Part shown: positions 3,636 through 60,720 of the stretch, in pieces
Position numbering within the stretch: the stretch's first letter is position 1
Layout of the letters: each line of letters starts with the position of its first letter
Assembly (NCBI GenBank): GCA_020510985.1
Contig: CM035843.1
Coordinates: 157,251,922 to 157,315,921 of the forward strand
Length of the DNA stretch: 64,000 nucleotides
DNA from: Pholidichthys leucotaenia
Taxonomy: Eukaryota
Direction: 5' to 3'
Translations under genes and position numbers: made by a program
Notes under the pieces: model-generated
What the model saw: only the letters and a program-made list of their open reading frames with translations
The model's database searches: none
What the model was told of the DNA's origin: nothing

Positions 3636-3659
3636 ATTTGCAGCTGCTTGATGGCACAG

Positions 3660-5830: not shown

Positions 5831-5849
5831 AAAAAATCAAACGTGTCCA

Positions 5850-6355: not shown

Positions 6356-6379
6356 ATTTGCAGCTGCTTGATGGCACAG

Positions 6380-8454: not shown

Positions 8455-8760
8455 CCATGGTGATTCCTCTCCACTTCTGTCCTCCTTTCTAGAGTCAAAA
8501 ATTTGACATGATTCAGAAGCGCCACGTGGCTGAGAGTTCTGCTTCTTCTGATGAAGACATGGTCTTTGGATCTCTCAGCGATGATGTAATGGCAATTCCA
8601 GTTGAGCCTTCTTCAGTTAGGGAGCATTTTTCATCTTTTTTTTCCTTTTTTTTATTAATCAAGAAAATTTACATTAAAATCTCAAAAACTCCCATTACAA
8701 GCCAGGCACTCATACAAGCAATGCAAAAACAGTGGCAGCATAAGATAAGGAAAAATAAAT
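8455..8760 (+). CDS. Exon-like ORF, family copy 3 (divergent): 'SSASSDEDMVFGSLSDDVMAIPVEPSSV…' then decays into A/T-rich low complexity
   Basis: Same conserved upstream block 'tggtgattcctctccacttctgtcctcctttctagagtcaaaaatttgacATG'. ORF at 8508-8762. Confidence 0.35.
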
Positions 8761-16343: not shown

Positions 16344-16369
16344 TCTACACTGGTGACCTACGACGGAAA

Positions 16370-20343: not shown

Positions 20344-20406
20344 TTAGCAATGTATGGAGTGCTTTGTGTTTTTCTTTTTTTTTTTTGTTATGCCATGCAG
20401 GTTTTG

Positions 20407-30755: not shown

Positions 30756-32340
30756 TACAGTGGGGCAAAAAAGTATTTAGTCAGCCACCAATTGAGCAAG
30801 TTCTCCCACTTAAAAGATGAGAGAGGTCTCCAATTTTCATCATAGGTATACCTCAACTATGAGAGACAAAATGAGAAAAAAAAAATCCAGAAAATCACAT
30901 TGAAAGATTTTTAATGAATTAATTGGTAAATTCCTCAGTAAAATAAGTATTTGGTCACCTACAAACAAGCAAGATTTCTGGCTCTCACAGACCTGTAACT
31001 TCTTTAAGAGGCTCCTCTGTCCTCCACTCGTTACCTGTATTAATGGCACCTGTTTGAACTCGTTATCAGTATAAAAGACATCTGTCCACAACCTCAAACA
31101 GTCAGACTTCAAACTCCACTATGGCCAAGACCAAAGAGCTGTCAAAGGACACCAGAAACAAAATTGTAGACCTGCACCAGGCTGGGAAGACTGAATCTGC
31201 AATAGGTAAGCAGCTTGATGTGAAGAAATCAACTGTGGGAGCAATTATTAGAAAATGGAAGACATACAAGACCACTGATAATCTCCCTCGATCTGGGGCT
31301 CCACGCAAGATCTCACCCCGTGGGGTCAAAGTTATCACGAGAACGGTGAGCAAAAATCCCAGAACCACATGGGGGGACCTAGTGAATGACCTGCAGAGAG
31401 CTGGGACCAAAGTAACAAAGGCTACATCAGAAACACACTATGCCGCCAGGGACTCAAATCCTGCAGTGCCAGACGTGTCCCCCTGCTTAAGCCAGTACAT
31501 GTCCAGGCCCGTCTGAATTTTGCTAGAGAGCATTTGGATGATCCAGAAGAGGATTGGGAGAATGTCATATGATCAGATGAAACCAAAATAAAACTTTTTG
31601 GTAAAAACTCAACTTGTCGTGTTTGGAGGAGAAAGAACACCATACCTACTGTGAAGCATGGGTGTGGAAACATCATACTTTGGGGCTGTTTTTCTGCAAA
31701 GGGACCGGGACGACTGATCCGTGTAAAGGAAAGAATGAATGGGGCCATGTATCGTGAGATTTTGAGTGAAAACCTCCTTCCACCAGCAAGGGCATTGAAG
31801 ATGAAACGTGGCTGGGTCTTTCAGCATGACAGTGATCCCAAACACACCGCCCGGGCAACGAAGGAGTGGCTTCGTAAGAAGCATTTGAAGGTCCTGGAGT
31901 GGCCTTGCCAGTCTCCAGATCTCAACCCCATAGAAAATCTTTGGAGGGAGTTGAAAGTCTGTGTTGCCCAGCGAAAGCCCCAAAACATCCCTGCTCTAGA
32001 GGAGATCTGCATGGAGGAATGGGCCAAAATACTAGCAACAGTGTGTGAAAACCTTGTGAAAACTTACAGAAAACGTTTGACGTCTGTCATTGCCAACAAA
32101 GGGTATATAACAAAGTATTGAGATGAAGTTTTTTTATTGACCAAATACTTATTTTACCGAGGAATTTACCAATTAATTCATTAAAAATCCTTCAATGTGA
32201 TTTTCTGGATTTTTTTTTTTCCTATTTTGTCTCTCATAGTTGAGGTATACCTATGATGAAAATTGGAGACCTCTCTCATCTTTTAAGTGGGAGAACTTGC
32301 ACAATTGGTGGCTGACTAAATACTTTTTTACCCCACCGTA
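30756..32340 (+). mobile_element. Tc1/mariner element (family 2; TIR 'TACAGTGGGGCAAAAAAGTATTTAGTCAGCCACC'), transposase with one frameshift
   Basis: ORFs at 31121-31516 ('[32 protein letters not shown]…') and 31651-32121 ('…[20 protein letters not shown]…[21 protein letters not shown]…'). Right TIR ends 'ccccaccgta' at 32340. Confidence 0.85.
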
Positions 32341-32591
32341 GATCCGGGCCACAGAGCAGCTGTTTTTGTTAACTGAATTAAAGCTGTAGTTTTCTGTAGT
32401 AATCTAACTTTGTGTGTTTGCCTTTCTATATTTTATAGTATTTAATTTACTGTTATTTCTTTTGAACAAAACAGTTATGGAAATAATGCAGTTTAGAATA
32501 TTGTATACAGTTCACTGTTGCTGTTTATTAAAACTACATGGTGCAAATGATGCACATTCCATTGAAAAATAGTAAATCAATGGCCTTTTCC

Positions 32592-34325
32592 ATATAGAGT
32601 GGTGTGAAAAAGTGTTTGCCCCCTTCCTGATTTCTCATTTTTTTTGTAAGTTTGTCACACTTAAATATTTCAGATCATCAAACAAATTTAAATATTAGAC
32701 AAAGATAACACAAGTAAAAACAAAATGCCGTTTTTAAATGGTAAATGGCATTCACTTATATAGCGCTTTTATTCTCATCTCTTGATGACCAAAGCGCTTT
32801 ACAGATTCAGCTATCCACCCATTCACACACACATTCACACACTGATGGCGGCATGCTGTCTAACATGGCACTTCCAGACCCACCAGGAGCAATTGGGGGT
32901 GAAGTGTCTTGCCTAGGGACACAACGGCAGGATATCCGGGGAGAGCGGGATTCGAACCGCCAACCATGGGGTTATTGGACGACCTGCTCTACCGCCTGAG
33001 CCTGAGCCACTGCCCCCCCTTTTTTAAATGAAGGTATTTATTATTAAAGGGGGAAAAAAAATCCAACCTTACATGGCCCTGTGTGAGAAAGTGACCCCCC
33101 CCCCCCCCCGGTTAAAACATGAATTAACTGTGGTTTATCACATCTTTGGAAAGCTGAGTTCAATTTCTCTAGCCACACCCAAGCCTGATTACTGCCACAT
33201 CTGTTCTCAGTCAAGAAATCACTTAAATAGGACCTGCCTGACAAAGTGAAGTAAACCAAAAGTTCCTCAAAAGCTAGACATCATGCTGTGATCCAGAGAA
33301 ATTGAGGAACAGATGAAAAACAAAGTTAATTGAGATCTATCAGTCTGGAAAAAGTTATAAAGCCATTTCTAAAGCTTTGGGACTCCAGCGAATCACAGTG
33401 AGAGCCATAATCCACAAATGGCCGGCCGACCAAAATTACCCCAAGAGCGCAGCAACGACTCATCCAAGAGGTCACAAAAGACCCCACAACAGCATCTAAA
33501 GGCTCATCTCAGTTTTGCCAGAAAACATCTTGATGATCCCCAAGACTTTTGGGAAAATACTCTGTGGACTGACGAGACAAAAGTTGAGCTTTTTGGAAGG
33601 TGTGTGTCCCATTACATCTGGTGTAAAAGTAACACAGCATTTCAGAAAAGGAACATCATACCAACAGTAAAATATGGTGTTGGTAGTGTGATGGTCTGGT
33701 GCTGTTTTGCTGCTTCAGGAACTGGAAGACTTTCTGTGGTAAATGGAACCATGAATTCTGCTGTCTACCAAAAAATCCTGAAGGAGAATGTCCAGCCATC
33801 TGTTCGTGACCTCAAGCTGAAGCGCACTTGGGTTCTGCAGCAGGACAATGATCCAAAGCACACCAGTAAGTCCACCTCTGAATGGCTTAAGAAAAACAAT
33901 ATGAAGATTTTGGAGTGGCCTAATCAAAGTCCTGACCTGAATCCGATTGAGATGCTGTGGCATGACCTTAAAAAGGCAGTTCATGCTCAACAATCCTCCA
34001 ATGTGGCTGAATTACAAAATTCTACAAATATGAGTGGGTCAAAATTCCTCCACAGCACTGTAAAAGACCCATTGCCAGTTATCACAAATGCTTGATTGCA
34101 GTTGTTGCTGCTTAGGTTGGCCCAACCAGGTATTAGGTTTAGGGGGCAATCACTTTTTCACACACGGCCATGTAGGTTTGGATTTTTTTCCCTTAATAAT
34201 AAACAACTTTATTTAAAAACTGCATTTTGTGTTTACTTGTGTTATCTTTGTCTAATATTTAAATTTGTTTGATGATCTGAAACATGTAAGTGTGACAAAC
34301 ATACAAAAAAATGAGAAATCAAGAA
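32592..34325 (+). mobile_element. Tc1/mariner element (family 3; outer TIR 'agtggtgtgaaaaagtgtttgccc'), degenerate, SINE nested in left TIR, right end truncated
   Basis: Transposase ORF at 33418-34095 ('…WTDETKVELFGR…[51 protein letters not shown]'). The long TIR region is shared with element at 42248-43612. Confidence 0.8.
32735..33010 (-). mobile_element. tRNA-derived SINE (minus orientation) inserted in the TIR of Tc1 family-3 element
   Basis: Reverse complement contains tRNA-like A and B boxes ('tggctcaggc…ggtagagcaggtcgtcc…ggttcgaatcccgctctcccc') followed by a conserved SINE body and '…catttaccatttaaaa' tail. Confidence 0.7.
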
Positions 34326-34489: not shown

Positions 34490-37400
34490 AAACTAATAAG
34501 ATAAGATAAGATAAGCCTTTATTAGTCCCACAACGGGGAAATTCCAGGATTGCAACAGCACAGGGATAGCAACACTCAGAGCAACAATCAGAAGGCAAGA
34601 AAAAAAAAAACAAGCAAGCAAGAGCAGCTAATATACATATGTACATATTACTATAAAATATATATATACACACACAGACACACAGTGCAGAGCATTGTAG
34701 CTGGATGGAATAAATATATGAATATATGAATACTACTATAGTACTACTACTACTACTAATACTACTATAAAGCCTATGTACATCATAGCTTAATATATGA
34801 TGGCCCGTATAAACACATGAATCATATCCGCTGCACGATGCAGGACTATCAGAAGTAGAGTGAAATGTGAGGCACCAGTCAGACTGTAAGGTGCAATGTG
34901 GCAGCATAGTTATGAGCCGAATACAACATCATAGTGAGTTATTGTACAGTGAAATGGCATGCAGCAGGAAAGATTTCTTGTACCTGGTCATTTGGCAGCG
35001 AAGCTGTAGTAGTCTACTGGAGAAAGTGCTCTGCTGTGTGTCCAGTGTGTGATGGAGGGGGTGATCACAATTGTCCATGATGGATCGCAGTTTATTTAGT
35101 GTTCTTCTCTCCACCACCGTCTCAAAGATCTCCAGCCTGAGACCAATACAGAGCCAGCCCTCTTGATAATCTTGTCAAGTCTGTTGGTGTTGCTGGCTCT
35201 GATACTGCTACCCCAACAGACAGCAGCAAAGATGGCGCTGATGACAGTGGTGTTGTAGAAAAGCTCCAGCATCGTGCTGCACATGTTTAGGGATCTCAGC
35301 TTCCTCAGGAAGTAGAGTCTGCTCATCCCCTTCTTGTGCACAGCATTGGTCAGCATCCTCAACCACCCCACATCCTCCCCCCTAATCTGCAATGGCTGAG
35401 AAGGCGACCTCTTCTTCCTGAAGTCAATCACCATCTCTCTGGTCTTGCTGACATTCAGCCTCAGGTGATTCTGCTCTGTCCACTCCACAAATCTATCTAC
35501 CAGTGCCCTGTACTCTCCCTCCTCTCCCCCTCTTATACACCCCACAACAGCTGAGTCATCAGAGAATTTCTGCAGGTGGCACGACTCAGTGTTGTACTGA
35601 AAGTCAGTGGTGTATAAGATGAAGAGAAAAGAAGAGAGCACAGTCCCCTGTGGAGCTCCCGTATCACTAACCACCACGCCAGACAAGACACTGCCCAGCC
35701 AGTCAAACTGTGGCCTGCCTGTCGGGTAGTCAGTAATCCAGGCATCGATGGAGCGACCCCCATCACTCGCAGCTTCTCACCCAGCAGCAGTGGCTGGATG
35801 GTGTTAAAGGCACTGGAGAAATCAAAAAATGTGATTCTCACAGTGTCTCCTCCACCATCCAGTGCAGATGGGCTTGTTGCAGCAGGTAGATGACAGCATC
35901 TTCAATTCCTAAATGGGGCTGATATGCAATCTGCAGAGGGTCCAGCCACATCTTCACCTGCAGCCTCAGGTGGGCTAAGACCAGTCTCTCCAGGACCTTC
36001 ATCACATGAGATGTGAGGACAGCTGGTCGATAGTCATTCAGGTCTGATGGAGATGACTTCTTGGGGACAGGAACCAGGCAGGACGTCTTCCACAGCACCG
36101 GTACTCTCTCGAGACTCAAGCTCAAGTTGTACAAGTGTTTCAGTACCGGAGCTAGCTGGTTGGCACAGGTCCTCAGGATCCTGGCGGAGATGCCATCAGG
36201 GCCCGCCACCTTCCACTGACAGTCTCTCTCCAGCTGTTTCTTAACCTGGTCTGTAGTCACAGTGATGTGAGGGAGGGTCCTGGTGTCCCCCAAGGAGGAG
36301 GAGGGGGGTGGGGGGGGAGATGGAGAGAGGTGCTGCACAGGACGGTGGAGGGAGGGGTGTGTGAGGGTCTGGCTGTGTTGTAGGGGTGATGGACTATGAG
36401 GTCATTCATTCATTCATCTTCTTCCGCTTAATCCTTTTCGGGTCGCGGGGGGGCGGGGGGCTGGAGCCTATCCCAGCATCTTTGGGCGAGAGGCAAGGTA
36501 CACCCTGGACAGATCGCCAGTCCATCGCAGGGCCAACACAGAGAGACAGACAACCATTCACTCTCACAGTCATACCTAAGGACAATTTAGAATCCCCAGT
36601 TTGATGCCAATTAACCTAACTTGCATGTTTTTGGCATGTGGGAGGAAACCAGAGAAATGCCCAAGTAAACCCACGCAGACATGGGGAGAATATGCAAACT
36701 CCACACAGATCACTGTTGGTCGGGGGCTGGGAGTTGAACCTACTAAAAAACAGATTCAATTCATCAGACCTGGCTCTCAGATGGCTGCCTGACTCTCCCC
36801 TTGCACCCAGTTATTTGTTTCATTCCCTCCCACACATCTTTAGCGTTGTTTTGCCTGAGTTTATCCTCCAGCTTCCTCCTATAATTGTCCTTGCACCTCC
36901 TCAGCATCTCTCTCAGCTCATGCTGCACTCCCCTCAGCTTCTCCTTGTCTCCGGACCTAAAAGCTCTCTTCTTTTTGTTCAGAAGTGCTTTCAGGTCACT
37001 CGTGACCCATGGTCTGTTGTTAGAGAAGCAGTGTACAGTCTGTGCTGGCATGGTCGTGTCCTCACAGAATTTGATGTATTCTGTGATGCAGTCGGTCATA
37101 TTGTCTATGTCCACTCCATGTTGTTCACAGAGTACGCTCCAGTCTGTTGTCTCAAAGCAGTCCTGCAGTGCGTCAGCAGCCTCCCGTGTCCACCTCCTCA
37201 CCGTCCGTGTATAAGCAGACTGGCTTTGCACAAGGGGAATGTGCTTGGGTGACAATATGACCATGCAGTGATCCGATTTGCCAATGGGGGGTAGAGCTGT
37301 GGCACTATATACATCCCAATCCAGTGTTTTTTTTTTCTGGTGGAGCAGTCAACAAACTAGTGAAAGTTTGGTATTGTTTTTCCCAGTGAGACATGATTAA

Positions 37401-37647: not shown

Positions 37648-40047
37648 TACAGTGGGGTAAAAAAGTATTTAGTCAGCCACCAATTGTGCCGGTTCTCCCA
37701 CTTAAAAGATGAGAGAGGTCTCCAATTTTCATCATAGGTATACCTCAACTATGAGAGACAAAATAAGAAAAAAAAAATCCAGAAAATCACATTGAAGGAT
37801 TTTTAATGAATTAATTGGTAAATTCCTTGGTAAAATAAGTATTTGGTCAATAACAAAAGTTCATCTCAGTACTTTGTTATATACCCTTTGTTGGCAATGA
37901 CAGAGGTCAAACGTTTTCTGTAAGTTTTCACAAGGTTTTCACACACTGTTGCTGGTATTTTGGCCCATTCCTCCATGCAGATCTCCTCTAGAGCAGTGAT
38001 GTTTTGGGGCTGTCACTGGGCAACACAGACTTTCAACTCCCTCCAAAGATTTTCTATGGGGTTGAGATCTGGAGACTGGCTCGGCCACTCCAGGACCTTG
38101 AAATGCTTCTTACGAAGCCACTCCTTTGTTGCCCGGGTGGTGTGTTTAGGATCATTGTCATGCTGAAAGACCCAGCCACGTTTCATCTTCAGTGCCCTTG
38201 CTGGTAGATGGAGGTTTTCACTCAAAATCTCACGATACATGGCCCCATTCAGAATCAGAATCAGAATCAGATTTATTGCCATTGTTCATGTAGTACACAA
38301 ACTAGGAATTTGTCTCGATGCCATGCTGCAACATTAAAAACATGATGAGAAAAAGAGATAAACTAAAAAACTAAAGGACTGAAAACATGCAATAAGTGTA
38401 GAAAAATAAGTAATAATAAGTAATAATGATAATAATAATAATAACAATACTAGTAATAATGAGTAGTACTAGTCAAGGCAGTTTTAAAAAATTAGCAAGT
38501 AGCAGATAATGTGAAGTACCACATAGTGCAGTCGATAATGCAACAGAAAACAGTGATGAATGACGTGAGTCTGGTTGAGCTGCTGTACATAGTGCACGAG
38601 AGTCAAAAAGTCATTTAATGTTCAGCAGTCTGATGGCAGAGGGGAAAAAGCTGTTCATGTGCCGGGAGGTTTTAGTCCGAATGGACCGAAGTCTTCTACC
38701 TGAGGGGAGGGGAGCAAACAGTACGTGACCAGGATGTGAAGGATCGGCTATGATCCGGCCAGCACGCCTCCGGGTCCTGGAGATGTACAGGTCCTGGAGA
38801 GATGGGAGCTCGCAGCCTATCACCTTCTCAGCAGTGCGCACGACGCGCTGCAGCCTTAGTCTGTCCCTGGCAGTGGCTCCTGCATACCACACAGTTATGG
38901 AGGAGGTGAGGATGGACTCGATGATGGCCGTGTAGAACTGCACTAACATCTTGGTGGGTAGCTTGAGCTTCCTCAGCTGCCGCAGAAAGAACATCCTCTG
39001 CTGGGCCTTTTTGATGGGCCCAGCAGAGGGCCCATCATCATCAGGGCCCATCAGGGCCATTCATTCTTTCCTTTACACGGATCAGTCATCCTGGTCCCTT
39101 TGGAGAAAAACAGCCCCAAAGCATGATGTTTGCACCCCCATGCTTCACAGTAGGCATGGTGTTCTTTCTCCTCCAAACACGACAAGTTGAGTTTTTACCA
39201 AAAAGTTCCATTTTGGTTTGATCTGACCATATGACATTCTCCCAGTACTCTTCTGGATCATCCAAATGCTCTCTCGCAAACTTCAGACGGGCCTGGACAT
39301 GTACTGGCTTAAGCAGGGGGACACGTCTGGCACTGCAGGATTTGAGTCCCTGGTGGCGTAGTGTGTTTCTGATGTAGCCTTTGTTACTTTGGTCCCAGCT
39401 CTCTGCAGGGCATTCACTAGGCCCCCCCATGTGGTTCTGGGATTTTTGCTCACCATTCTCGTGATAATTTTGACCCCACGGGGTGAGATCTTGCGTGGAG
39501 CCCCAGATCGAGGGAGATTATCAGTGGTCTTGTTTGTCTTCCATTTTCTAATAATTGCTCCCACAGTTGATTTCTTCACACCAAGCTGCTTACCTATTGC
39601 AGATTCAGTCTTCCCAGCCTGGTGCAGGTCTACAATTTTGTTTCTGGTGTCCTTTGACAGCTCTTTGGTCTTGGCCATAGTGGAGTTTGGAGTCTGACTG
39701 TTTGAGGTTGTGGACAGGTGTCTTTTATACTGATAACGAGTTCAAACAGGTGCCATTAATACAGGTAACGAGTGGAGGACAGAGGAGCCTCTTAAAGAAG
39801 AAGTTACAGGTCTGTGAGAGCCAGAAATCTTGCTTGTTTGTAGGTGACCAAATATTTATTTTACTGAGGAATTCACCAATTAATTCATTAAAAATCCTTC
39901 AATGTGATTTTCTGGATTTTTTTTTTTCTCATTTTGTCTCTCATAGTTGAGGTATACCTATGATGAAAATTGGAGACCTCTCTCATCTTTTAAGTGGGAG
40001 AACTTGCACAATTGGTGGTTGACTAAATACTTTTTTGCCCCACTGTA
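37648..40047 (-). mobile_element. Tc1/mariner element (family 2), minus orientation, disrupted by an ~800-bp LINE 3' fragment insertion (38259-39050) with about 10-bp target-site duplication 'ggccccattca / gggccattca'
   Basis: TIR 'tacagtggggtaaaaaagtatttagtcagccacc' at 37648; end 'ccccactgta' at 40047. Transposase N-terminus at 39283-39678 (-). The inserted ORF at 38611-39060 (-) is a LINE ORF2 C-terminus '…HPGHVLFAPLPSGRRLRSIRTKTSRHMNSFFPSAIRLLN' with a (CTGATT)n tail. Confidence 0.8.
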
Positions 40048-42247: not shown

Positions 42248-43612
42248 TGTGTTTGTCACACTTAAATGTCTCAGATCATTTAACAAATTTAAATGTTAGA
42301 CAAAGATAACGCAAGTAATTACAAAATGCAGTTTCTAAATGAAGGTATTTATTATTAAGGGGAAAAAATCCAAACCTACATGGCCCTGTGTGAAAAAGTG
42401 ATTGCCCCTAAACCTAATAACTGGTTGGGCCACCCTTAGAAGCAACAACTGCAGTCAAGCGTTTGTGATAACTGGCAATGAGTCTTTTACAGTGCTGTGG
42501 AGGAATTTTGGTCCACTCATCTTTGCAGAATTCTTGTAATTCAGCCACATTGGAGGGTTTTCGAGCATGAACTGCCTTTTTAAGGTCGTGCCACAGCATC
42601 TCAATTGGATTCAGGTCAGGACTTTGATTAGGCCACTCCAAAGTCTTCATTTTGTTTTTCTTAAGCCATTCAGAAGTGGACTTGCTGGTGTGTTTTGGAT
42701 CATTGTCCTGCTGCAGATCCCAAGTGCGCTTTAGCTTGAGGTCATGGACAGATGGTCGGACATTCTCCTTCATGATTTTTTGGTAGACAGAAGAATTCAT
42801 AGTTCCATTTACCACAGCAAGTCTTCCTGGTCCCGAAGCAGCAAAACAGCCCCAGACCATCACACTACCACCACCATATTTTACTGTTGGTATGATGTTC
42901 CTTTTCTGAAATGCTGTGTTACTTTTACACGGGATGTAATGGGACACACACCTTCCAACTGTCTGTCCAACTGACTGTCTTGTCAGTCCACAGAGTATTT
43001 TCCCAAAAGTCTTGAGGATCATCAAGATGTTTTCTGGCAAAATTGAGACAAGCCTTTGTTCTTTTTGCTCAGCAGGTGTTTTCGTCTTGGAACATTGTTG
43101 GCCATTTTTGGCCAGTCTCTTTCTTATGATGGAGTCATGAACACTGATCTTAACTGAGGCAAGTGAGGTCTGCAGTTCTTTGGATGTTGTTGTGGGGTCT
43201 TTTTGTGACCTCTTGGATGAGTCGCCGCTGCGCTGTTAGGGTAATTTTGGTCAGTCAACCGCTCCTGGGAAGGCTCACCACTGTTCCATGTTTTCCCCAT
43301 TTGTGGATAATGGCTCTCACTGTGGTTCGCTGGAGTCTCAGAGCTTTAGAAATGGCTTTATAACCTTTTCCAGACTGATATGTCTGTTACTTTGTTTCTC
43401 ATTTATTCCTGAATTTCTTTGAATTGCAGCATGATGTCTAGCTTTTGAAGATCTTTTGATCTACTTCACTTTGTCAGGCAGGTCCTATTTAAGTGATTTC
43501 TTGATTGAGAACAGGTGTGGGAATAATCAGGCCTGGGAAATTGAACTCAGCTTTCCAAAGACATGATAAACCACAGTTAATTTATGTGTTGGGGGGGGGG
43601 TGCGGCTGGTGG
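42248..43612 (-). mobile_element. Tc1/mariner element (family 3), minus orientation, both ends truncated; 208-aa C-terminal transposase ORF
   Basis: ORF at 42414-43040 (-) '…TVKYGGGSVMVWGCFAASGPGRLAVVNGTMNSSVYQKIMKENV…[68 protein letters not shown]…'. Confidence 0.8.
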
Positions 43613-43639
43613 GGATCCTACCCTAGCGGGTGAAATTCT

Positions 43640-44830
43640 CAGAAGAAATCAACTAAGGTGACATCACTCACCATTGGCACTTGGAATGTGCGAACGCTTA
43701 TGGACAGCTCCAAAGCAGACAGACCTGAGAGATGGACAGCACTTGGCTGCGCACTCAACACCGCTACAGAGGCCCAGATGCAGCAGAGCATGAACTGCTT
43801 CTTCACTGCTTGTGACAGCTTTGGGCTCACAATCAGTATGAAGAAAACCGAGGTCCTGCACCAACCCGCACTGCAGAAGACTTACGTGGAACCAGCCGTC
43901 ACTGTCAACGGGGAGACCCTCAAGGCTGTTGACAAGTTCACATACCTCGGTAGCACACTGTCCAGGTCTGTCAACATTGACGACGAGGTCGATTCATGCA
44001 TTGCAAAGGCAAGCTCAGCATTTGGACGTCTATGTGCAACAGTGTGGGAAAGGACAGGCATCAGGCTGACCAGAAAACTGAAGGTGTACAAGGCAGTTGT
44101 CCTGCCTTCCCAACTGTACGCCTGCAAAACCTGGACAGTCTACGAGCGCCATGCCAGAAAGCTAAACCTCTTCCACCTGAATTGCCTCAGAAAGCTCCTG
44201 AAGATCACCTGGAAGGACAAAATGCCTGACATGGAGATCCTCTCCCAAGCTGAGCTCCCTAGCATCGACACTCTGCTCAAGAGAGCCCAGATTAGGTGGG
44301 CTGGCCACCTTGTTTGTTTGCCTGACTCATGCCTACCAAAGAGACTGTTCTACGGTGAACTAGCAGACGGCAAGCGGTCACAAGGTGGTCAGAAGAAGCG
44401 CTACAAAGACACTCTTAAGGCCTCCCTGAAGCGCTTTGACGTAAGTCCTGACACCTGGGAGACCCTAGCGCTAGACCGACCAGACTGGCGTAGCCGTACC
44501 AGCAAAGGTGCTGCCTTCTTTGAGCTGAACAGGATTGCCAAAGGCCAGAGAAAACGTGAGCGTCGCAAGTCCACAGCCACCCCTGTATCTTCTGCCTGCA
44601 CAGACCACCTGCGCCCGACCTGTGGCAGAGCCTTCCGTGTCCGCATCGGACTGATCAGCCACAGCCGGACACACCGCACCCAGTCCTCTTCCCTGTGATG
44701 TCCTTGGTCATTGTCAAGAACGACGGACGAACAACTACAACAAATGTGTGTGTGTGTGTGTGTCGGTGTGTGTGTGTGTATGTATGTATGTGTGTGTATA
44801 TATATGTATGTGTATATGTATATATAATAT
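43640..44830 (+). mobile_element. Internally deleted CR1/L2-type LINE: a single uninterrupted 346-aa ORF fuses the first ~15 residues of the APE endonuclease ('LTIGTWNVRTL') directly to the RT C-terminal/thumb and CCHH zinc-knuckle tail; followed by a (TG)n tail
   Basis: ORF at 43658-44698: '…LNLFHLNCLRKLLKITWKDKMPDMEILSQAELPSIDTLLKRAQIRWAGHLV…CTDHLRPTCGRAFRVRIGLISHSRTH'. Microsatellite at 44741-44790. Confidence 0.7.
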
Positions 44831-46371
44831 GAGTTAATCTGAGTTTTTTCTTCCTCTAACTTTCTGATCCGGCGACAACTTATACATCACGGACACACAG
44901 ATCGCCCCAAATGTCTCCCGAGCCGGTGGACGGAGCCACTGTTTATAGCAGGAGACGGTACAATAGGGACCAGCTGTTAGCACTTAACCGCCACTCGGTG
45001 CTAACGAAAAAACTCGACATACCGGGAGAAATAAGACGAAAACGACGTGGGTGTCGTGCTGGTGTAAGACGGCGGGCAAGGAATATAAGGTACAGACCCC
45101 CCCCTCCCATCCGTTGTTATGAGGAATGTACGATCGATAATTGGAAAGACAGATGAGCTAGCGGCTATCTCTGCTGCCGTATGCTATTCACTGAGACGTG
45201 GCTATCAGAACTAGCAGCAGATGCTAACATTGAACTGGAGGGTTTCCATGCAATACGGGCAGACCAAACACCAGACAGTGGGGAGGCAAGGGGCGGTGGA
45301 GTGATAATGTATGTTAATAACAACTAGTGCAGACCGGGACATATCACGGTTAAACAACAACACTGCAACAAGGACATGGAGTTGCTAGCTGTTAGCATGC
45401 GGCCTACCTATCTCCCGAGGGAATACTCACACGTGATCTGCATTGTTATTTATGCAAATCCGACAACGAACGCTGGGACAGCGCGTGATGTCATCCACTC
45501 AGTAACTGGCAGGCTGCAGACAGAACACCCAGGTGCTCTTCTCCTCATCTCAGGTGACTTCAACCATGTTTCACTGTCTCCCATTCTACCCACTTTCACC
45601 CAGTATGTCACATGCCACACTAGAGACAATAAAACACTGGACTTATTGTACGCAAACACTAAGGAGGCGTACACCTCATCACCACTCCCCCCCACTCGGG
45701 AGATTGGATCACAACTTGGTTCATCTCCGGCCGGTGTACAAACCCCTAGTGCACAGACAACCTCCGGTCATGCGCACAGTGAAGTTATGGTCTGAGGAGG
45801 CAATGGACGCTTTAAAGGACTGTTTTGAAACCACTGCTTGGGAGCAGCTCTGCGAGCCACATGGTGAGGACATCGATGGCCTCACTCACACCATCACGGA
45901 CTACATCAGCTTCTGTGTGGACAACACCGTACCCACCAAGACCATACGGTGTTGCTCGAACAACAAACCCTGGATCAACCCTGAGATAAAAACACTTCTG
46001 AGAGAGAAGAAGAGGATCTTCAGGTCGGGGAACAGGGAGATGCTGAAGTTCGTACAGAGGGAGCTGAGGAGGAAGATCAGAGAAAGCAAGGACAGCTTCA
46101 GGAAGAAGATGGAGGACAAGCTGCAACAGAGCGACATTGGTGGGGTCTGGAGAAACCTTAAAACCATCTCTGGGCTCCAGAATACCTCCCCCCAGGCCAC
46201 GGGGAGGCAGGGAGTGGGCGAACAATCTGAACCTGTTTTTTAATAGGTTTGACCAACCGCCCTCCCCCCCGACTGCACAACAACCACTGCTGCCTCTGAA
46301 GACATCGAGTCCTGCTGCCCACACCCCACTCCACCATCACCCCCCCCACTCCCAACACACAGCCCCCCAAC

Positions 46372-47793
46372 ATGACCCTCACTAAGACCCAGGTGAGGAC
46401 GGAGCTGAGGAAGATCAAGGCGAGGAAGGCGTCGGGACCGGACGGCATCAGCGCAAAGCTCCTCAAGTCCTGTGCAGACCAGCTGTGTGGGATTGTGGAG
46501 CTCATCTTCAACCTGAGCCTGAAGCTGGGGAGGGTACCACAGTTGTGGAAAACATCTTGTGTGGTACCTGTACCAAAGACTTCCCACCCCAAAGATCTGA
46601 ACAGCTACAGACCAGTGGCCCTGACGTCCCACATGATGAAGACCCTGGAGAGACTGCTCCTTGCTCACCTCCGCCCCCTGGTGGGACCAGTGATGGATCC
46701 ACTGCAGTTCGCCTACCAGCATGGCATTGGGGTGGAAGATGTGGTGATCTTCCTCCTTCAGCATTCTTTGTCCCACCTGGAGAAGCCCGGGAATGCGGTG
46801 AGGATCATGTTCTTTGACTTCTCCAGTGCTTTCAACGCCATCCAACCTATGATCCTGAAGGACAAGCTGCTGTGCGCAGGGGTGGACCAGCACCTGTCAT
46901 CATGGATCCTGGACTACCTCACTAACCGGCCACAGTTTGTGAGAACCCGGGACTGTGTGTCCGACACGATCATCGGTAGCACGGGGGCCCCCCAGGGAAC
47001 GGTTTTGGCTCCCTTCCTGTTCACTCTTTATACTGCAGACTTCTCACACAACACAACACACTGCCATCTACAGAAGTTCTCTGACGACTCGATCGTCGGC
47101 CTCATCTCCAACGGAGATGAAGCTGAGTACAGAGGACTTATCCAGGACTTCGTGGACTGGTGCCATCAGAACTGCCTCCAGATCAACGCGAGGAAAACTA
47201 AGGAGCTGGTGGTGGACTGCCGCAGGCAAGGTCAACCCCTCACAGCACCAGTAAATATACAGGGAACAGACATTGAGATGGTGGCATCCCACAAGTACCT
47301 GGGTGTTCATCTGAACAATAAACTAGACTGGTCACACAATACTGACGCACTCTACAAGAAAGGACAGCGCAGGCTGTTCCTACTGAGGAGACTCAGGTCT
47401 TTTGGTGTACAAGGGGCGCTGCTGAAGACATTCTATGACACGGTGGTGGCACCAGCCATCACTTTTGGAGTGGTCTGCTGGAGTAGTGGCGTTACAGCAG
47501 CCGATAGGAAGAGACTGAACAAACTGATCAAGAAAGCTAGCTCTGTCCTGGGGCAACGCCTTGACCCAGTGGAGGAGATGGGAGAGAGAAGGACGGTGGC
47601 TAAACTGTCATCTCTGCTGGAGTCCGAGTTCCACCCTATGCAGGACATACTGAACGCACTGAGGAGCTCATTTAGCAGCAGACTACATCATCCCAGGTGC
47701 ACAACCGAGAGGTTCCACAGGTCCTTCCTACCTACGGCTGTCAGACTGTATAACCTAAGCAGGGCTGCTCACAGAGATAGCAAAAAAACGTGA
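46372..47793 (+). CDS. LINE ORF2 reverse-transcriptase region (473 aa, uninterrupted)
   Basis: '…LWKTSCVVPVPKTSHPKDLNSYRPVALTSHMMKTLERLLL…FFDFSSAFNAIQP…FSDDSIVGL…NARKTKELVVDCRR…'. Confidence 0.8.
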   Translation: MTLTKTQVRTELRKIKARKASGPDGISAKLLKSCADQLCGIVELIFNLSLKLGRVPQLWKTSCVVPVPKTSHPKDLNSYRPVALTSHMMKTLERLLLAHLRPLVGPVMDPLQFAYQHGIGVEDVVIFLLQHSLSHLEKPGNAVRIMFFDFSSAFNAIQPMILKDKLLCAGVDQHLSSWILDYLTNRPQFVRTRDCVSDTIIGSTGAPQGTVLAPFLFTLYTADFSHNTTHCHLQKFSDDSIVGLISNGDEAEYRGLIQDFVDWCHQNCLQINARKTKELVVDCRRQGQPLTAPVNIQGTDIEMVASHKYLGVHLNNKLDWSHNTDALYKKGQRRLFLLRRLRSFGVQGALLKTFYDTVVAPAITFGVVCWSSGVTAADRKRLNKLIKKASSVLGQRLDPVEEMGERRTVAKLSSLLESEFHPMQDILNALRSSFSSRLHHPRCTTERFHRSFLPTAVRLYNLSRAAHRDSKKT

Positions 47794-48011: not shown

Positions 48012-49699
48012 TACAGTGGGGTAAAAAAGTATTTAGTGAGCCACCAATTGTGCAAGTTCTCCCACTTAAAAGATGAGAGAGGTCTCCAATTTTCATCATA
48101 GGTATACCTCAACTATGAGACAAAATGAGAAAAAAAAAATCCAGAAAATCACACTGAAGGATTTTTAATGAATTAATTGGTAAATTCCTAAAATAAGTAT
48201 TTGGTCAATAACAAAAGTTCATCTCAGTACTTTGTTATATACCCTTTGTTGGCAATGCCAGAGGTCAAACGTTTTCTGTAAGTCTTCACAAGGTTTTCAC
48301 ACACTGTTGGTGGTATTTTGGCCCATTCCTCCATGCAGATCTCCTCTAGAGCAGTGATGTTTTGGGGCTGTCACTGGGCAACACAGACTTTCAACTCCCT
48401 CCAAAGATTTTCTATGAGGTTGAGATCTGGAGACTGGCTAGGCCACTCCAGGACCTTGAAATGCTTCTTACGAAGCCACTCCTTCGTTGCCCGGGCAGTG
48501 TGTTTGGGATCATTGTCATGCTGAAAGACCCAGCCACATTTCATCTTCAATGCCCTTGCTGATGGAAGGAGGTTTTCACTCAAAATCTCACGATACATGG
48601 CCCCATTCATTCTTTCCTTTACACGGATCAGTCGTCCTGGTCCCTTTGCAGAAAAACAGCCCCAAAGCACAATGTTTCCACCCCCATGCTTCACAGTAGG
48701 TATGGTGTTCTTTCTCCTCCAAACACGACAAGTTGAGTTTTTACAATAAAGTTCTATTTTGGTTTCATCTGACCATATGACATTCTCTCAGTCCTCTTCT
48801 GGATCATCCAAATGCTCTCTAGCAAACTTCAGACGGGCCTGGACATGTACTGGCTTAAGCAGGGGGACACGTCTGGCACTGCAGGATTTGAGTCCTTGGT
48901 GGAGTAGAGTGTGGAGTAGTGTGTTACTGATGGTAGCCTTTGTTACTTTGGTCCCAGCTCTCAGCAGGTCATTCACTAGGTCCCCCCGTGTGGTTCTGGG
49001 ATTTTTGCTCACCGTTCTCGTGATCATTTTGACCCCACGGGGTGAGATCTTGCATGGAGCCCCAGATCAAGGGAGATAATCAGTGGTCTTGTATGTCTTC
49101 CATTTTCTAATAATTGCTCCCACAGTTGATTTCTTCGCACCAAGCTGCTTACCTATTGCAGATTCAGTCTTCCCAGCCTGGTGCAGGTCTACAATTTTGT
49201 TTCTGGTGTCCTTTGACAGCTCTTTGGTCTTGACCATAGTGGAGTTTGGAGTCTGACTGTTTGAGGTTGTGGACAGGTGTCTTTTATACTGATAAAGAGT
49301 TCAAACAGGTGCCATTAATACAGGTAACGAGTGGAGGACACAGACCTGTAACTTCTTCTTAAAGAAGAAGTTACAGGTAACTTCTGTAACTGTAACTTCT
49401 TCTTTAAGAAGAAGTTGTCATGCTGTCATGTTGTCATGCTTCTTCTTTAAGAAGAAGTTACAGGTCTGTGAGAGCCAGAAATCTTGCTTGTTTTTAGGTG
49501 ACCAAATACTTATTTTACCGAGGAATTTACCAATTAATTCATTAAAAATCCTTCAATGTGATTTTCTGGATTTTTTTTTTCTCATTTTGTCTCTCATAGT
49601 TGAGGTATACCTATGATGAAAATTGGAGACCTCTCTCGTCTTTTAAGTGGGAGAACTTGCACAATTGGTGGCTGACTAAATACTTTTTTCCCCACTGTA
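48012..49699 (-). mobile_element. Tc1/mariner element (family 2), minus orientation, inserted at a TA in the LINE 3' UTR; internal palindromic rearrangement of the TIR-proximal region at 49330-49480
   Basis: '…tttgtacaTA|cagtggggtaaaaaagt … ccccactg|TAtgtatactcg'. Removing the element restores 'tgtacatatgtatac', matching the uninterrupted LINE copy near 34630. Transposase pieces at 48371-48694 and 48788-49027 (-). Confidence 0.85.
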
Positions 49700-50689: not shown

Positions 50690-52545
50690 CAACTTTATTT
50701 ATATAGCGCCATTTCACAACAACAGTCATCTCATAGCACTATCAACTGTAGGGGGGAACCCCCACAGTTGCAGAAAGACCCCAGCAATCAGGCGATCCCC
50801 TGTGAGCAAGCACTTGGCGACGGTGGAGAGGAAAAACTCCCTTTTAACAGGAAGAAACCTCCAGCAGAACCAGGCTCAGGGAGGGGCAGTCATCTGCTGC
50901 GACTGGCTGGGGGGTGAGGGGATAGAGAAGATGAAAAGAACAGACATGTAGAGAGCAAACAGCACGATGGGGACTCAATCTATGGGAGAGAACAAACAGA
51001 TGTTAATGACCAGCAAAAAAAAATATATATATATTTCATAGAGAGTGAGGAAAGGAGTGAGGCCCAGTGCATTACTGGAGGTCCGCCGGCTGACTAAACC
51101 TATTAGCAGCATAACTAAGGGAGGGTTCAGAAACACATGATCCCTCCCTAATTGTAGGCTATATCAAAAAGGTAGGTTTTAGCCCTATTCTTAAAAACAG
51201 AGATCGAGTCTGACTCCCGAATCCAGATTGGCAGCTGATTCCACAGGAGAGGAGCTTGATAACTGAAGGCTCTGCCTCCCATTGTACTTTTGGAGATTCT
51301 AGGTATTACAAGTAATCCTGCATTTTGGGAGCGTAGTGCTGTGTTAGGATAATACGGTAGTATCAGATCTTTTAAATAAAAAGGAGCCTGATTGTTTAGA
51401 GCTTTGTAAGTAAGAAGAAGGATTTTAAACTTAATTCTAAACTCAATGGGAAGCCAATGAAGGGAGACCAGAACCGGAGAGATATGATCTCTCTTTCTAG
51501 TACCTGTTAAAACTCTTGCTGCAGCATTTTGGATCAGCTGAAGACTTTTTAAAGATGTTTTAGGACAGCCTGATAATAAAGAATTACAATAATCTAATCT
51601 CGAGCTAACAAAAGCGTGGATCAGCTTCTCAGCATCACTCTGAGACAAGATGCTCCTAATCTTGGCAATATTACGCAAATGATAGAAGGCAGTCTTAGAA
51701 ACAAATTTAATATGTGAATTGAAGGACAAATCCTGATCAAAAATAAGATAAGATAAGATAAGATAAGCCTTTATTAGTCCCACAATGGGGAAATTCCAGG
51801 ATTTCCCCCCAAAAAAACTCCAAGGTTCCTCACAGAGCTATTAAGAGAAAGAGTAACTGCATCCAAACTGAAAGTTTGATTTGGAAAGGAATTTCTAAGG
51901 TTTTTTGGACCAACAAGAATGACTTCAGTCTTATCTGAATTTAATAGCAGGAAATTACAAGTCATCCAAGCTTTGATTTCCTTAAGACAGGCTTCTAACT
52001 TGGCTAATTGATTACTATCATCTGGCTTCATTGACAGGTATAATTGTGTGTCATCTGCATAACAATGAAAATGTATACAGTGCTTTCTAATAATGTTGCC
52101 TAACAGAAGCATATATAAACTAAAAAGAGTAGGGCCTAGCACAGATCCCTGTGGAACTCCATGACTAAGCTTTGAGTTGAAAGAAAACTCATTATTTACA
52201 TGAACAAACTGGAACCTATCAGATAAATAAGATCTAAACCATTGCAACGAAGTTCCATTAAGTCCAACATAGTGTTCTAATCTATCAAGTAGAATATTAT
52301 GATCGATAGTATCAAAAGCTGCACTAAGGTCTAAAAGGACAAGGACAGAAACTAGTCCATTATCAGATGCAATGAGGAGGTCGTTAGTGACCTTCGCTAA
52401 GGCTGTTTCAGTACTATGATGGATTCTAAACCCAGATTGAAACTCTTCAAGTAAACCATTTCCCTGCAGGTGGTCAAATAATTGCGTAGCAACAACTCTT
52501 TAAGATGGATTTGCTAGGGATGCTCTAAAGTGTGTAGGTATGCTT
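50690..52545 (-). mobile_element. LINE (same family as 1-1050), minus orientation: RT ('[11 protein letters not shown]', 'YADDTQLY'), ORF2 C-terminus, 3' UTR with (TTGAA)n tail; about 65-bp foreign fragment (LINE (TTATC)n tail piece) inserted at 51752-51815
   Basis: Minus-strand ORFs at 51774-52247 and 51148-51783. 50700-51140 is the reverse complement of 600-1020. Confidence 0.8.
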
Positions 52546-56493: not shown

Positions 56494-57299
56494 TAACTCT
56501 CATCCCCATGTGTGAGCTAGCTCACCCAGATGAGATCTGTTGGTCACATGACAAACAGCATTGAGTTTTTTGCATGGTGGAATTTACAAGTACCCCTACT
56601 TTCCTAGGTGATATTTACCTACTCTAAAAGAATTCATATTGAGGGAAAACATGCACAAACATTTATGACAACAAGCAATGCAGATAGAGTCAAATGTAGC
56701 TCTTATTTCATCTCTTCAGCTGCTCTTGGATAGATGCAGCCATAAACCGAAGATCTGAGTCTTTCTTCTTCTGCTCCTCTTCTGACATCTGTGTGTAAAG
56801 TCTGTGTTGTTGGGGGGGGGGGGCACCCAGAAGCTGTGTGGCTCCTGTGGGGGCGATAAAACTTGGAGCGGGGTTAAAACAGTCTTATAAGTTCATAAAT
56901 GAAGCAACAGAGTTCATGAGAGGGAATTGCAGAGTTCTGTCTGGCTTGAGTGTGCTACAATTGTAATTTGCGACTTTTTGAAATTTTAAATTGGCATCTT
57001 TATCATATTTTTGCACTTTTTATTCTTGCAAATTTACGTCTAATTTACATTTATCCATTTGTACCTCATGCTAAATTTGTGAATACTGACCACCCCTTTT
57101 TTTGAAAGATAACAAATGACCCACTGCTGATGCTCATGACACGCTCCATCTGTGCACGTGTGTGTGGTCCAGGTAAGAAGGCCCATGGTGACATCTTGAG
57201 GCTCGTGGCCACTCTTCTGGTTCTGCAGCTCATGAGGTTGATGGAGTTGGAAGAAGGCAAACTGCTCCGAAGTCTCTTCAGCCTGGAGGAGGCCCCTCT

Positions 57300-58420
57300 T
57301 CCCAGGTTTGCAACTTTTTCCAAAATATTTGCAAATTTTCCCTAAATTTGTGATTATTTTTTTTTTCCACAGTCAAATTGTACTTGAACAAAAATAGCAT
57401 TACCTTTACAGTTTGCTAAATTTTTCCAATAAAATTTCAGTGTTTTTCTGGTAAATGTACAATGTTTTTTCTGGTAAATTTGCAACTTTCGCATAGATTT
57501 GCAATTTTTTTCTTGTAAATTTTCAGTGTTTTTCCTCATAAATTTGCAAATTTTCCTCAAAAATTTGCATATTTTTTCATAAATTTGCAACTTCGTTTTG
57601 CATAAATTTGTGCATTTTTTCCTCAAATTTTCAACTTTTTTCTCTTAAATTTGCAATTTTTTCCACATAAATTTGACTTTTTCCTGTAAATTTTCAACAT
57701 TTTGCCATTTTCATCGATTTGCAACATCTCTCCTAAATTTGCAAAAATGTTCCCAAAATTTGCAAATTTTCTCAATCTGCAGCTTTTTCCCCAATCTTAT
57801 ATAGCTGCAGTTGTCTCATAATGTTGTATTTTTTTAATAAATTTGCAACTTTCCCCAAGTCTTACAAATTTATGCATTTTTCTCATTTACATAGATTTGC
57901 AACATTTTCCCCTAAATTTGTAAATTTTCTGAAAATCTGCCACTTCCTTTTCAATCTCGTAAATTTGTAACTTTTTTCTGATAAGTTTACAAATTTATCT
58001 CAAATTTGTAACTTTTTTCCAGTCTCGCAACTTTGAAAATTTTTCCTAAACATAAAACTTTCCCCCAATCCCTAAAATTGTAACTTTTTTCCAATAAATT
58101 TGTAAATTGTCCCTAATTTTGCAGCTTTTTTCCCTGTGTCTTAAAATTGAGACTTTTTCTAATCTTGTAAATTTTACAACTTTTTCCAAAATATCTGTAA
58201 ATGTTATTTAAATTTGTGACTTTTGTCCCAGCCTCGTTGTTTTGCTAATTTTTAATGAATTCCCAACTTTTCCCCAATCTTGTAAATTTGCAACATGTTC
58301 CTATAAAGTTCCAAATTTTCTCAAAATCTGCAACTTCTGTTTCGTTCTTGTAGATTTGTAACTTTTTTCTGGTAAATATGCAACTTTTTGTTAAATTTGT
58401 GACTTTCCCTCAGTCTCTTA
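57300..58420 (-). repeat. ~22-bp satellite, ~1.1-kb array in reverse orientation, immediately upstream of the ARF-domain exon
   Basis: 'aaatttgcaactttttccaaaatatttgcaaattttccctaaatttgtga…ctcataaatttgcaaattttcctcaaaaatttgcatattttttcataaatttgcaacttcg…'. Confidence 0.9.
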
Positions 58421-58498
58421 AGCCCCACCTTTAGAAACTTCCCACCTGAGTCACAATTTCAGAGAAAGTTGTTTCTGACGGTCGAGTTTCTCTTGCAG

Positions 58499-59189
58499 AC
58501 CAAAGTTCTGGGATCAGGTGAAGAAGGCGGTGGACTGGGCTTACCGGGCCGACCGCCACTACCCCTGCATCTGCAGCCGGTTGGAGTTCGGCTTCAGCTG
58601 GGAGTCCGCCACCCGTCAGCTCCTGGGTTACGAGAAACCGCCTCCCTTCTCTCCCCTCAGCTGTCTCGATCTGCAGATCACCACAACCAGGAGAGAATTG
58701 AAGATTGTCATCCTCGGGTTGGACAACGCCGGAAAAACAAGTATCCTCTACAAGATGAAGATAGGAGAGGCGATCCCCACCATCCCCACCATCGGCTTTA
58801 ACGTGGAGACCGTGGAACACCGAGACATGGTCTTCAACCTTTGGGACGTTGGCGGTCAGAAGAAGATCAGGCCTCTGTGGCGCCACTACATCTACGACAT
58901 TCATGGTATAATGTTTGTGGTGGACAGCAGCGACAAGGTGAGACTAAACGAAGCCAGGGAGGAGCTGAACAAAGTCCTCACTGAAGACGAACTCGGAGAC
59001 ACCCCGCTGCTGGTTTACGCCAACAAACTGGATCTCCCCGACGCCATGGATGACGCAGAGATCGCAGAGAAGCTGGGCCTGCACGCCCTCCATCAGCGCC
59101 GCTGGTGTATCCAGCCCTGCAGTAGCATCACGGCGGAGGGGCTGTATGAGGGCCTGGACTGGTTCTGCTTCCAGATGATCCAGGAATGA
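58499..59189 (+). CDS. Terminal coding exon of an ARF-family small GTPase domain (P-loop GLDNAGKT, switch '[11 protein letters not shown]', 'WDVGGQ', 'ANKLDL', C-terminus '…[16 protein letters not shown]'), preceded in the same exon by a ~75-aa non-GTPase extension with no in-frame ATG (acceptor 'tttctcttgcag|AC', intron phase 2)
   Basis: Frame of ORF-track entry 58518-59189 (that start is a GTG). Strong ARF/ARL family motifs. The nearest architecture analogy is an ARF domain appended to a larger protein (TRIM23/ARD1-like), but no upstream exons were identified. Confidence 0.7.
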
Positions 59190-59299
59190 TGATCTCTTCC
59201 TCCAGGTTTTGATTTTTACAAAACTACCACACTATTAGTAAAGCCATTCCAGAGCGTTAATTTAATTATGAGTTCTGGTTTTCTGTTTGGAAAAATATT

Positions 59300-60720
59300 G
59301 TAACTTAAAATTTTAGAGAAAAGTTTTCCTTCATGAGAGTGGGAAAGAACAGCAAATTATGAGGGGGTGGAAAATGTACAAAACTGGGCAAAAAATGTTG
59401 CAAAATTTACAAAGGGGAGGAGGCTGCCGATTTAAAAGATGAGGAAAAGTCACAAATTTACAAGACAAAAAGCAGCCACGAATATATGAGATGGGAAAAA
59501 GTTTCATATTTATGAAACCAGGGTAAAATTCACAGATTTACGAGGGCAAGTTGCAAATTTACGGGGAGGGGGTTCACAAAATATGAGACTCAATGAATAG
59601 TTGCAAATTTACAAAATGAGGAAAAAGTTGTGAATTTTAAAAACTTGACAAAGTTGCAGATTTATGGAACTAAGGCAAAAGTCACAAATTCATGAATCAG
59701 GAAGTAGTTACAAATTTACAAGGCTGGGGGAAAGTTGCAAATTTACAAAATGAGGAAAAAGTGAAAAAAAATTAAGACGTGGAAAAAGTCGCAAATTTAT
59801 AAAATGAGGAAAGAGTTGCAAATTTATAAAATGGTGAAAAAGTACCAAATTTATAAAATAATAACAAATAATACATTTTATTTATGGGCACCTTTCATGA
59901 CACTCAAGGTCACCTTACAATAATAAAAAAAATAAAAATTAAATAGAAAACTGAAGAAAAAGTAGCGAATTTATAAAATGGGGAAAAGCAGCAAATTTAT
60001 AAAATAATAACAAATAATACATTTTATTTATGGGCACCTTTCATGACACTCAAGGTCACTTTACAATAACAAAAAATAAATAAAAATTAAGCTTAAATAG
60101 AAAAATGAAGAAAAAGTAGCAAATTTATAAAATGGGGGGAAAAGTCACAAATTTATGAGAAAAAAAGTCAAATTTTTTTTAAAAATGTGAAATTGTCACA
60201 AATTTACAAGACAGAAGTCACAATTTTACAAGATGAGGAAAAGGCTGCAAATTTAATAAACTAGGCCAAAAGTTACAAATTTATGAATCAGGAAGTATTT
60301 ATAAATTTACGACGGTAGGGAAGAGTTGCAAATTTGCGAGACTACGAAGAAAAGTTGCAAGTTTACAAAATGAAGAAAAAATTGAAAATATGAAGGTGAA
60401 GTCGCAAATTTATGAAACTTCAAATTCTCAAATTTACAAAACAGGAAAATGTTGCAAATTTTTGAAACGGCATGGAAAGTTGCAAGTTTATAAGAAGAAG
60501 TCACAAAGTTGAATTTAACTGTTGATTTTAATAAAGGTAAATTGCAATTTACCAAAAGAGCCCTGCAAATTTAGGGGAAAATTTCCACAAATTCGTGGGG
60601 AAAAAAATTACATTTTGATGATAAAAGCAAAAAAATTTACAAAAAAAGAAATCGCATTTAAATGGAAAAAAACTGACCCGAATCTACATGACAAAAGTTG
60701 TAATTTTCCAAAAGATTTAA
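59300..60720 (+). repeat. ~22-bp satellite, ~1.4-kb array in forward orientation, containing a 2 x ~135-bp higher-order duplicate (59855-59990 and 59990-60125)
   Basis: 'agttgcaaatttacaaaatgaggaaaaagttgtgaattttaaaaacttgacaaagttgcagatttatggaactaaggcaaaagtcacaaattcatgaatc…'. Confidence 0.9.

Follow-up and report, generated by a model that had tools for sequence, protein, structure and literature searches.

In the present work, we describe a terminal exon (58499-59189, forward strand) in a window of 64,000 nucleotides, the whole stretch of DNA that was analysed, in which a single open frame runs from the end of a PARP4 MVP-interaction domain (MINT/MVP-ID) directly into an ARF G-domain. This arrangement probably represents a lineage-specific PARP4-ARF chimera that was formed by in-frame insertion of a processed ARF1-like copy, has been maintained since, and would presumably be expressed. 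The combination of a PARP4 MVP-ID with an ARF domain is new, as it occurred in no protein database searched; its parts and the kind of event that joined them are known.

The open frame of the terminal exon begins at 58479, after an in-frame TGA (58476-58478), and the splice acceptor (tttctcttgcag, followed by the A of the exon) has its polypyrimidine tract 3' of this TGA and its AG at 58497-58498. Position 58499 supplies the last nucleotide of a split codon whose first two, AG, stand at the end of the preceding exon; joining yields the codon AGA, in line with an earlier sequence-only reading that had placed the exon behind a strong acceptor with split-codon entry. The exon holds 229 whole codons in one frame and terminates with TGA at 59187-59189, directly followed by a second TGA; the 223-aa translation given in the earlier reading corresponds to an open reading frame counted from a GTG start. 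Because the first in-frame methionine (58755-58757) lies 3' of the P-loop, the complete G-domain is unable to start within this exon. The previous observations that no in-frame ATG precedes the G-domain and that the leader is devoid of methionine thus stand, while the length assigned to this leader (75 residues) does not: ARF homology sets in after 63 residues, and the P-loop after 72. Besides, an antisense open reading frame of 157 aa (58431-58904, reverse strand) overlaps the coding exon; we regard it as a side effect of the high GC content of the coding sequence on the opposite strand.

Protein searches with the whole exon were dominated by ARF1 matches, and the leader was searched alone instead. 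As a query, it returned five fish proteins that are either named 'PARP4-like' or carry PF26156 (PARP4_MVP-ID), at 67-74% identity (71-77% in another comparison), and it matched residues 1666-1715 of the 1724 residues of human PARP4 with E=2e-9 (PDB 9bw6, 9bw7, 11jf). When joined to the exons preceding it, the spliced MVP-ID aligned to residues 1574-1715 of human PARP4 (Q9UKK3; E=1.6e-29) and retrieved 55 teleost MVP-ID proteins (PF26156), the best of them at 77% identity. The MINT/MVP-ID anchors PARP4 inside the vault (PMC10711553, PMC12280208), whereby residues 1562-1724 bind MVP repeats 3-5 and S1614, K1618, Q1682 and R1689 are MVP-contact residues (PMC12280208). Three of their equivalents, those of S1614 (exon N-2), K1618 (exon N-1) and R1689 (terminal exon), are conserved here, and Q1682 is replaced by H, at a position where other fishes have Q, E or H. 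Judged by homology, the first 63 codons of the terminal exon are the end of the PARP4 MVP-interaction domain, which fixes the protein to the inner vault wall, so that the TRIM23/ARD1-like partner suggested by the sequence-only reading had to be abandoned. The best explanation of the locus is PARP4 of a percomorph-like teleost, its nearest relatives being percomorph teleosts.

For the second part of the exon, the Pfam Arf profile (PF00025) gave 222.5 bits (cut-off 22.3; E=3.4e-66) over residues 61-223, covering profile positions 9-171 of 174. As had been proposed from the letters, the Arf G-domain is complete: the P-loop (G1) GLDNAGKT at 58716-58739, the switch-I PTIGF at 58785-58799, DVGGQ at 58845-58859 and NKLD at 59022-59033 are all present, and G5 reads CSS (59118-59126) in place of CAT or CSA, an Ala-to-Ser change. 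The nearest solved structures are those of ARF1 and ARF3 (~61% identity over 163 residues, gapless), with ARF4, ARF5 and ARF6 scoring ~20 bits lower and ARLs lower still. Homology starts at the equivalent of ARF1 K15/K16 without Met-Gly, which agrees with the previously noted lack of an N-terminal myristoylation glycine, and the segment brings its own stop. It shares with ARF1 and class-I ARFs the P-loop, the switch-I Thr, DVGGQ, NKxD, the interswitch Trp and a predicted GTP-form fold, but lacks residues 1-14 (the myristoylated amphipathic helix with Gly2), a start codon and introns; in addition, 39% of its residues are replaced, mostly family-variable ones, and NKQD has become NKLD, CAT has become CSS and D72 has become K. 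In an alignment-based AF2 model (pLDDT 81), MINT-type helices are followed by a canonical ARF fold that lies 1.3-1.6 Å from GTP-form ARF1 and ~4 Å from GDP forms; a single-sequence AF2 model (pLDDT 45) was uninformative. Cholera toxin, SopF and MCF were among the structural matches to the alignment-based model. The G-domain presumably binds GTP, and the fusion is presumably expressed.

Compared with fish ARF1, the ARF part shows 61% protein and 73% DNA identity across 166 ungapped codons, and both have 'LHALRQR' in common. Three introns interrupt the corresponding coding region of a fish ARF1 gene (L005). All of them are absent from the window, where the ARF part is collinear with the spliced L005 coding sequence across the three parental intron positions. 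Since this collinearity with an intron-less spliced ARF1 coding sequence is gapless for 166 codons, we take the ARF part to derive from a processed copy. LINE reverse-transcriptase open reading frames within the window are compatible with retroposition, and the insertion may well have been RNA-mediated. Of the hallmarks of retroposition, neither a clear poly-A tail nor a target-site duplication could be made out, and similarity to the ARF1 3' UTR after the stop was not above that of shuffled sequences (699 of 2000 shuffles reached the observed score). A stretch reading 'KTTTLLVK' (~59220-59243, in frame after the stop) was considered as a displaced PARP4 tail with an ACCACA target-site duplication; the resemblance is suggestive but not significant (empirical p of ~0.13). 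In the most probable scenario, a processed and 5'-truncated class-I ARF (ARF1-like) coding sequence would have inserted in frame shortly ahead of the PARP4 stop, by a few codons, and would supply the rest of the protein together with the stop codon. The predicted product would be PARP4, or an isoform using these 3' exons, whose last few residues are replaced by an ARF G-domain at the C-terminus; this domain would lack the N-terminal helix and hence the myristoyl membrane switch.

The junction coincides with the place where PARP4 usually ends. Each of the 55 teleost MVP-ID proteins carries PF26156 only and none an Arf domain, and in the 20 that were read the stop follows '…L[NDK]LQ[RK]T' at a short distance, in most cases 7-10 residues (e.g. 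LDLQRTTAPVLVQ and stop). The window reads LDLQITTT at this point and then continues with ARF sequence, the transition being in frame exactly at the usual PARP4 end. A protein covering both the MVP-ID and the ARF part was found neither in a search of 5.8 billion clusters nor in one of 1.84 billion representatives. The C-terminal ARF fusions that the latter contained have kinase, LRR, DUF4246 or CFA20 partners according to Pfam scans, none of them related to PARP4. Two metagenome scans returned neither related loci nor the junction itself, these scans and the 55 MVP-ID proteins did not include a second species with a PARP4-ARF fusion, and a literature search for a PARP4-ARF link in fish found no papers. 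The extreme C-terminus of fish PARP4, as read from these sequences, is variable between lineages. In another fish (L006:302-574; Logan SRR31175790), a 23-residue tail follows 'LQR' (IAEEAPKEEIFERMRAMRNYFGVF and stop), in which no hidden ARF was detected.

For the ARF part, compared with the fish ARF1 of another species, dN was 0.245 and dS 0.81, a pairwise ratio of 0.30. As the ARF1 protein is almost invariant, nearly all of this dN falls on the branch of the copy, whose own dN/dS would be at least ~0.6 and could approach 1; with such a value, constraint on the ARF part is only partial. The pattern of change is nevertheless not a neutral one: of the 166 residues, 65 have changed, yet none of the ten columns with at least 90% conservation, and substitutions accumulate where the family itself varies (Mann-Whitney p=4.6e-11), the rare changes in conserved columns being K to R, L to M, I to M and G to A. 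These data have to be held against the view that the processed copy is a mere passenger that landed in frame and is translated or tolerated without a function of its own, its open frame and motifs either persisting by chance or stemming from an already-diverged ARF paralogue that inserted recently. Such a history would fit a fusion that no other species shows among the 55 MVP-ID proteins, a tail after 'LQ[RK]' that varies among fishes and hence tolerates changes, and the high dN/dS on the ARF branch. Besides, when neutral drift was simulated up to the divergence observed, the frame stayed free of stops with a probability of ~0.04, which is small but not negligible. Against it speak the avoidance of conserved ARF columns and the 166 codons that contain neither an indel nor a stop. 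A premature stop here would spare the MINT, and an intact 3' half therefore points to selection on the ARF itself. As to a diverged source, no match above ~64% identity to the ARF part was among those listed in the search of 5.8 billion clusters (90%-identity clusters), the 1.84 billion representatives being picked at 50% identity and so providing no measure of closer ARF relatives. Taken together, we consider a functionless passenger unlikely, and less likely than a maintained chimera.

The sequence-only reading had regarded the 57 kb upstream of the terminal exon as devoid of recognisable exons. This was overturned when a metagenome contig with a compact fish PARP4 gene (L002) was used as a tblastx query against the window, with the halibut (L003) and eelpout (L004) loci run likewise, which uncovered exons N-1 and N-2. 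A third upstream exon, N-3, also matches fish PARP4 in sequence, and a fourth, larger one is probable (Table 1). Exons N-1 (133 nt) and N-2 (103 nt) have exactly the length and phase of their L002 counterparts, at 8831-8963 and 8655-8757, respectively, and exon N-2 also aligns to human PARP4. Exon N-3 comprises 76 nt (one base plus 25 codons; acceptor ttttcag, donor CCA/gtaaga) and agrees with fish PARP4 in splice phase, and the acceptor of the terminal exon matches those of L001-L004 in both position and phase. All upstream PARP4 exons have canonical AG/GT sites and compatible phases. The candidate large exon is a 484-codon open frame, disordered and Pro-rich with FG-like 'SFGAAPQ' repeats, and is bounded by the acceptor tccttcctag and the donor AA/gtgagt. 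Its final two nucleotides form part of a split codon, and its end phase fits the next exon and is that of the equivalent exon in L002; no Pfam or TE domain was found in it and no homologue at the other fish loci compared. Splicing of the five exons gives 2457 nt with an 818-codon open frame and a single terminal stop. The earlier claim that this is the last exon of a larger gene, with an ARF module appended to another protein, was thereby borne out.

Table 1. Features of the window discussed in the text (positions in the window; strand + forward, - reverse).
Feature	Position	Strand	Basis or remark
LTR-like flanking segments, identical ORFs	15806-16288 and 20506-20988	-	
LTR element, gag-like DUF7041 ORF	16313-17131	+	
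LTR element, pol ORF, 1080 aa	17101-20340	+	protease, RT, RNase H, integrase
Candidate large PARP4 exon	22370-23823	+	presumed from position, strand and phase
PARP4 MVP-ID exon N-3 (…PRWRTNIFKMQHP)	25846-25921	+	matches fish segment …LRWTKIFQMQHS
PARP4 MVP-ID exon N-2 (DGYWELTTELG…KGINSLG)	26060-26162	+	tblastx, 61-80% identity to fish PARP4
Tc1/mariner (DDE_3) remnants	31058-34092, 39286-39741, 42417-43235, 48374-48787		
LINE RT ORFs	35099-36401, 43634-47790, 51151-52499		
PARP4 MVP-ID exon N-1 (KKAHGDILRLVATLLVLQLMR…LEEAPLP)	57173-57305	+	tblastx, 73-78% identity to fish PARP4
Degenerate minisatellite, unit TTTTTCTCATAAATTTGCAA, 20-22 bp period	57307-58420		fills last intron, non-coding
Terminal exon, part 1, last helices of PARP4 MVP-ID	58499-58688	+	homology to human and fish PARP4
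Terminal exon, part 2, putatively inserted ARF1-derived G-domain	58689-59189	+	Pfam Arf, ARF1 alignment, AF2 model
Inverted minisatellite (reverse complement), 27 bp and 146 bp periods	59330-60500		3' flank, presumed 3' UTR

The remainder of PARP4 is not represented in the window: tblastx with two fish PARP4 loci detected none of the core exons (BRCT, PARP, VIT, vWA), including in the 22 kb upstream of the large exon. L002, by contrast, has an order of open reading frames that, read by eye, likely corresponds to a BRCT region, the end of the PARP catalytic domain, VIT, vWA and MVP-ID, and at the halibut locus the MVP-ID model is immediately preceded, in the same orientation, by a gene model with the domains BRCT-WGR-PARP-VIT-VWA. 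It is from this halibut synteny that we infer a linkage of the window exons to full-length PARP4, whose core exons may sit beyond the start of the window, given introns of up to 31 kb. In RefSeq, the halibut PARP4 locus is represented by two separate models, one for the PARP4 core (1271 aa) and one for the MVP-ID (205 aa). Teleost MVP-ID proteins in databases are generally short (146-241 aa), and some start with intron-derived residues ('MALFLCVLQ/EGYWEL'; P0272, P0291, P0295); an internal promoter could give rise to a stand-alone MINT protein, or these could merely be incomplete models or unspliced RNA.

The missing core, the 31 kb of TEs that make up one intron and the short fish MVP-ID models separate from the PARP4 core would fit a scenario in which the MVP-ID exons and the ARF were a non-functional, partial 3' duplicate of PARP4 stranded among TEs, with the real PARP4 elsewhere. 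Yet splice sites and phases are still canonical in all four exons that have homology support, and these join the candidate large exon in one frame, the MVP-contact residues are conserved, and each PARP4 exon occurs in a single copy within the window. Moreover, dN/dS of the MVP-ID exons was 0.14-0.24 against five fishes, indistinguishable from the 0.11-0.32 among those presumably functional orthologues. On these substitution rates, the 3' end of the host PARP4 gene is under normal purifying selection. A stranded duplicate thus appears improbable, more so than a passenger copy, and likewise falls behind the chimera. The same ratios, along with the strong constraint pattern of the ARF part, argue against the orphaned, pseudogenised or transduced exon that had been offered as an alternative in the sequence-only reading; both halves of the fusion look constrained, the ARF half partially so.

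An ordinary ARF/ARL gene with a short upstream ATG exon, which the earlier reading had kept in reserve, or a TRIM23/ARD1-type RING-B-box-ARF gene would account for an ARF domain that has no start of its own and lies behind a splice acceptor, and TRIM23 is the classical C-terminal ARF fusion, but both are excluded for practical purposes by the 63 residues of the same exon and the preceding exons that are PARP4 MVP-ID by homology, by the lack of a RING or B-box upstream and by ARF1/ARF3 being the closest G-domains.

The surroundings of the PARP4-ARF exons are rich in repeats. The inverted satellite arrays reported to flank the terminal exon are real, albeit degenerate: the 11-mer core AAATTTGCAAC occurs at a forward:reverse ratio of 14:3 in 57.5-58.5 kb and of 0:15 in 59.5-60.5 kb, and the first AATAAA past the stop of the terminal exon is at 59922. 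Minisatellites of the AAATTTGCAAC type also recur elsewhere within the introns of the gene (~21-21.9 kb, 24 kb and 26.5 kb), which suggests a family of dispersed repeats and not one peculiar to the ARF exon. Tc1/mariner (DDE_3) transposase remnants and LINE-type reverse-transcriptase open reading frames fill the 31-kb intron between exons N-2 and N-1, and an apparently complete LTR retrotransposon spans 15600-21000 on the forward strand. Close to the start of the window, we observed a 2.72-kb tandem duplication (3094-3725 / 5814-6445 and 4667-5251 / 7389-7973). A duplicated open reading frame therein (3165-3632 = 5885-6352) had no Pfam match and contains 'SSSDEDMGFGLFDDD', resembling the acidic tail of ribosomal P proteins; its 'PQKHAEAIF' is common to the LTR region at 20573-20629.

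With respect to known systems, the host part is that of vault PARP: the last four exons encode a MINT/MVP-ID with its contact residues and with the exon sizes (103 and 133 nt) and phases of fish PARP4. It departs from canonical PARP4 in that a 166-residue ARF G-domain takes the place of the tail of 7-10 residues past the last MINT helix, and in that the catalytic and VIT/vWA exons are absent from the window. With TRIM23/ARD1, the predicted product shares the layout of a larger protein with a C-terminal, non-myristoylated ARF domain, but the partner there is a RING-B-box-coiled-coil and here the PARP4 MINT; besides, the ARF domain of TRIM23 is ancient and split by introns, in contrast to the intron-less and lineage-specific one of the window. 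As to the kind of event, TRIM5-CypA (TRIMCyp) and other chimeric genes derived from retrocopies are cases in which a host gene has gained a new C-terminal domain from a processed housekeeping-gene copy inserted at its 3' end. In TRIMCyp, splicing joins on a cDNA that resides in an intron or the 3' UTR, whereas the ARF copy lies in frame inside a coding exon. PARP4-ARF may thus be likened to both TRIM23 and TRIM5-CypA while being a member of neither family.

A third parallel comes from engineered INT/mINT tags, with which proteins fused to PARP4 ~1563-1724 are delivered into the vault lumen. By analogy with such INT-tagged cargo, the MINT anchor would carry the ARF module into the lumen. Vaults would then hold a tethered, helix-less, GTP-binding ARF as a natural counterpart of the engineered cargo, a notion that we advance tentatively and hold to be possible rather than probable. 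The differences are that the engineered fusions are synthetic and usually have their cargo N-terminal to INT, while the window fusion is natural, predicted, and has its ARF at the C-terminus.

Were the fusion unexpressed or a passenger, it would be a curiosity of a TE-rich locus. If it is indeed a maintained chimera, PARP4-ARF could link what vaults or PARP4 do to GTP state, ARF effectors or GEFs, or it could serve as a decoy or sensor for the many bacterial toxins whose cofactor is host ARF (cholera toxin, SopF, MCF), and the fast-evolving ARF surface would reflect neofunctionalisation. PARP4 is the sole known enzymatic component of vaults. A vault anchor joined to a GTPase switch domain would be a natural experiment in what vaults can usefully tether, and it would also provide a clean case of domain gain, in which a processed gene copy was inserted in frame into a coding exon.
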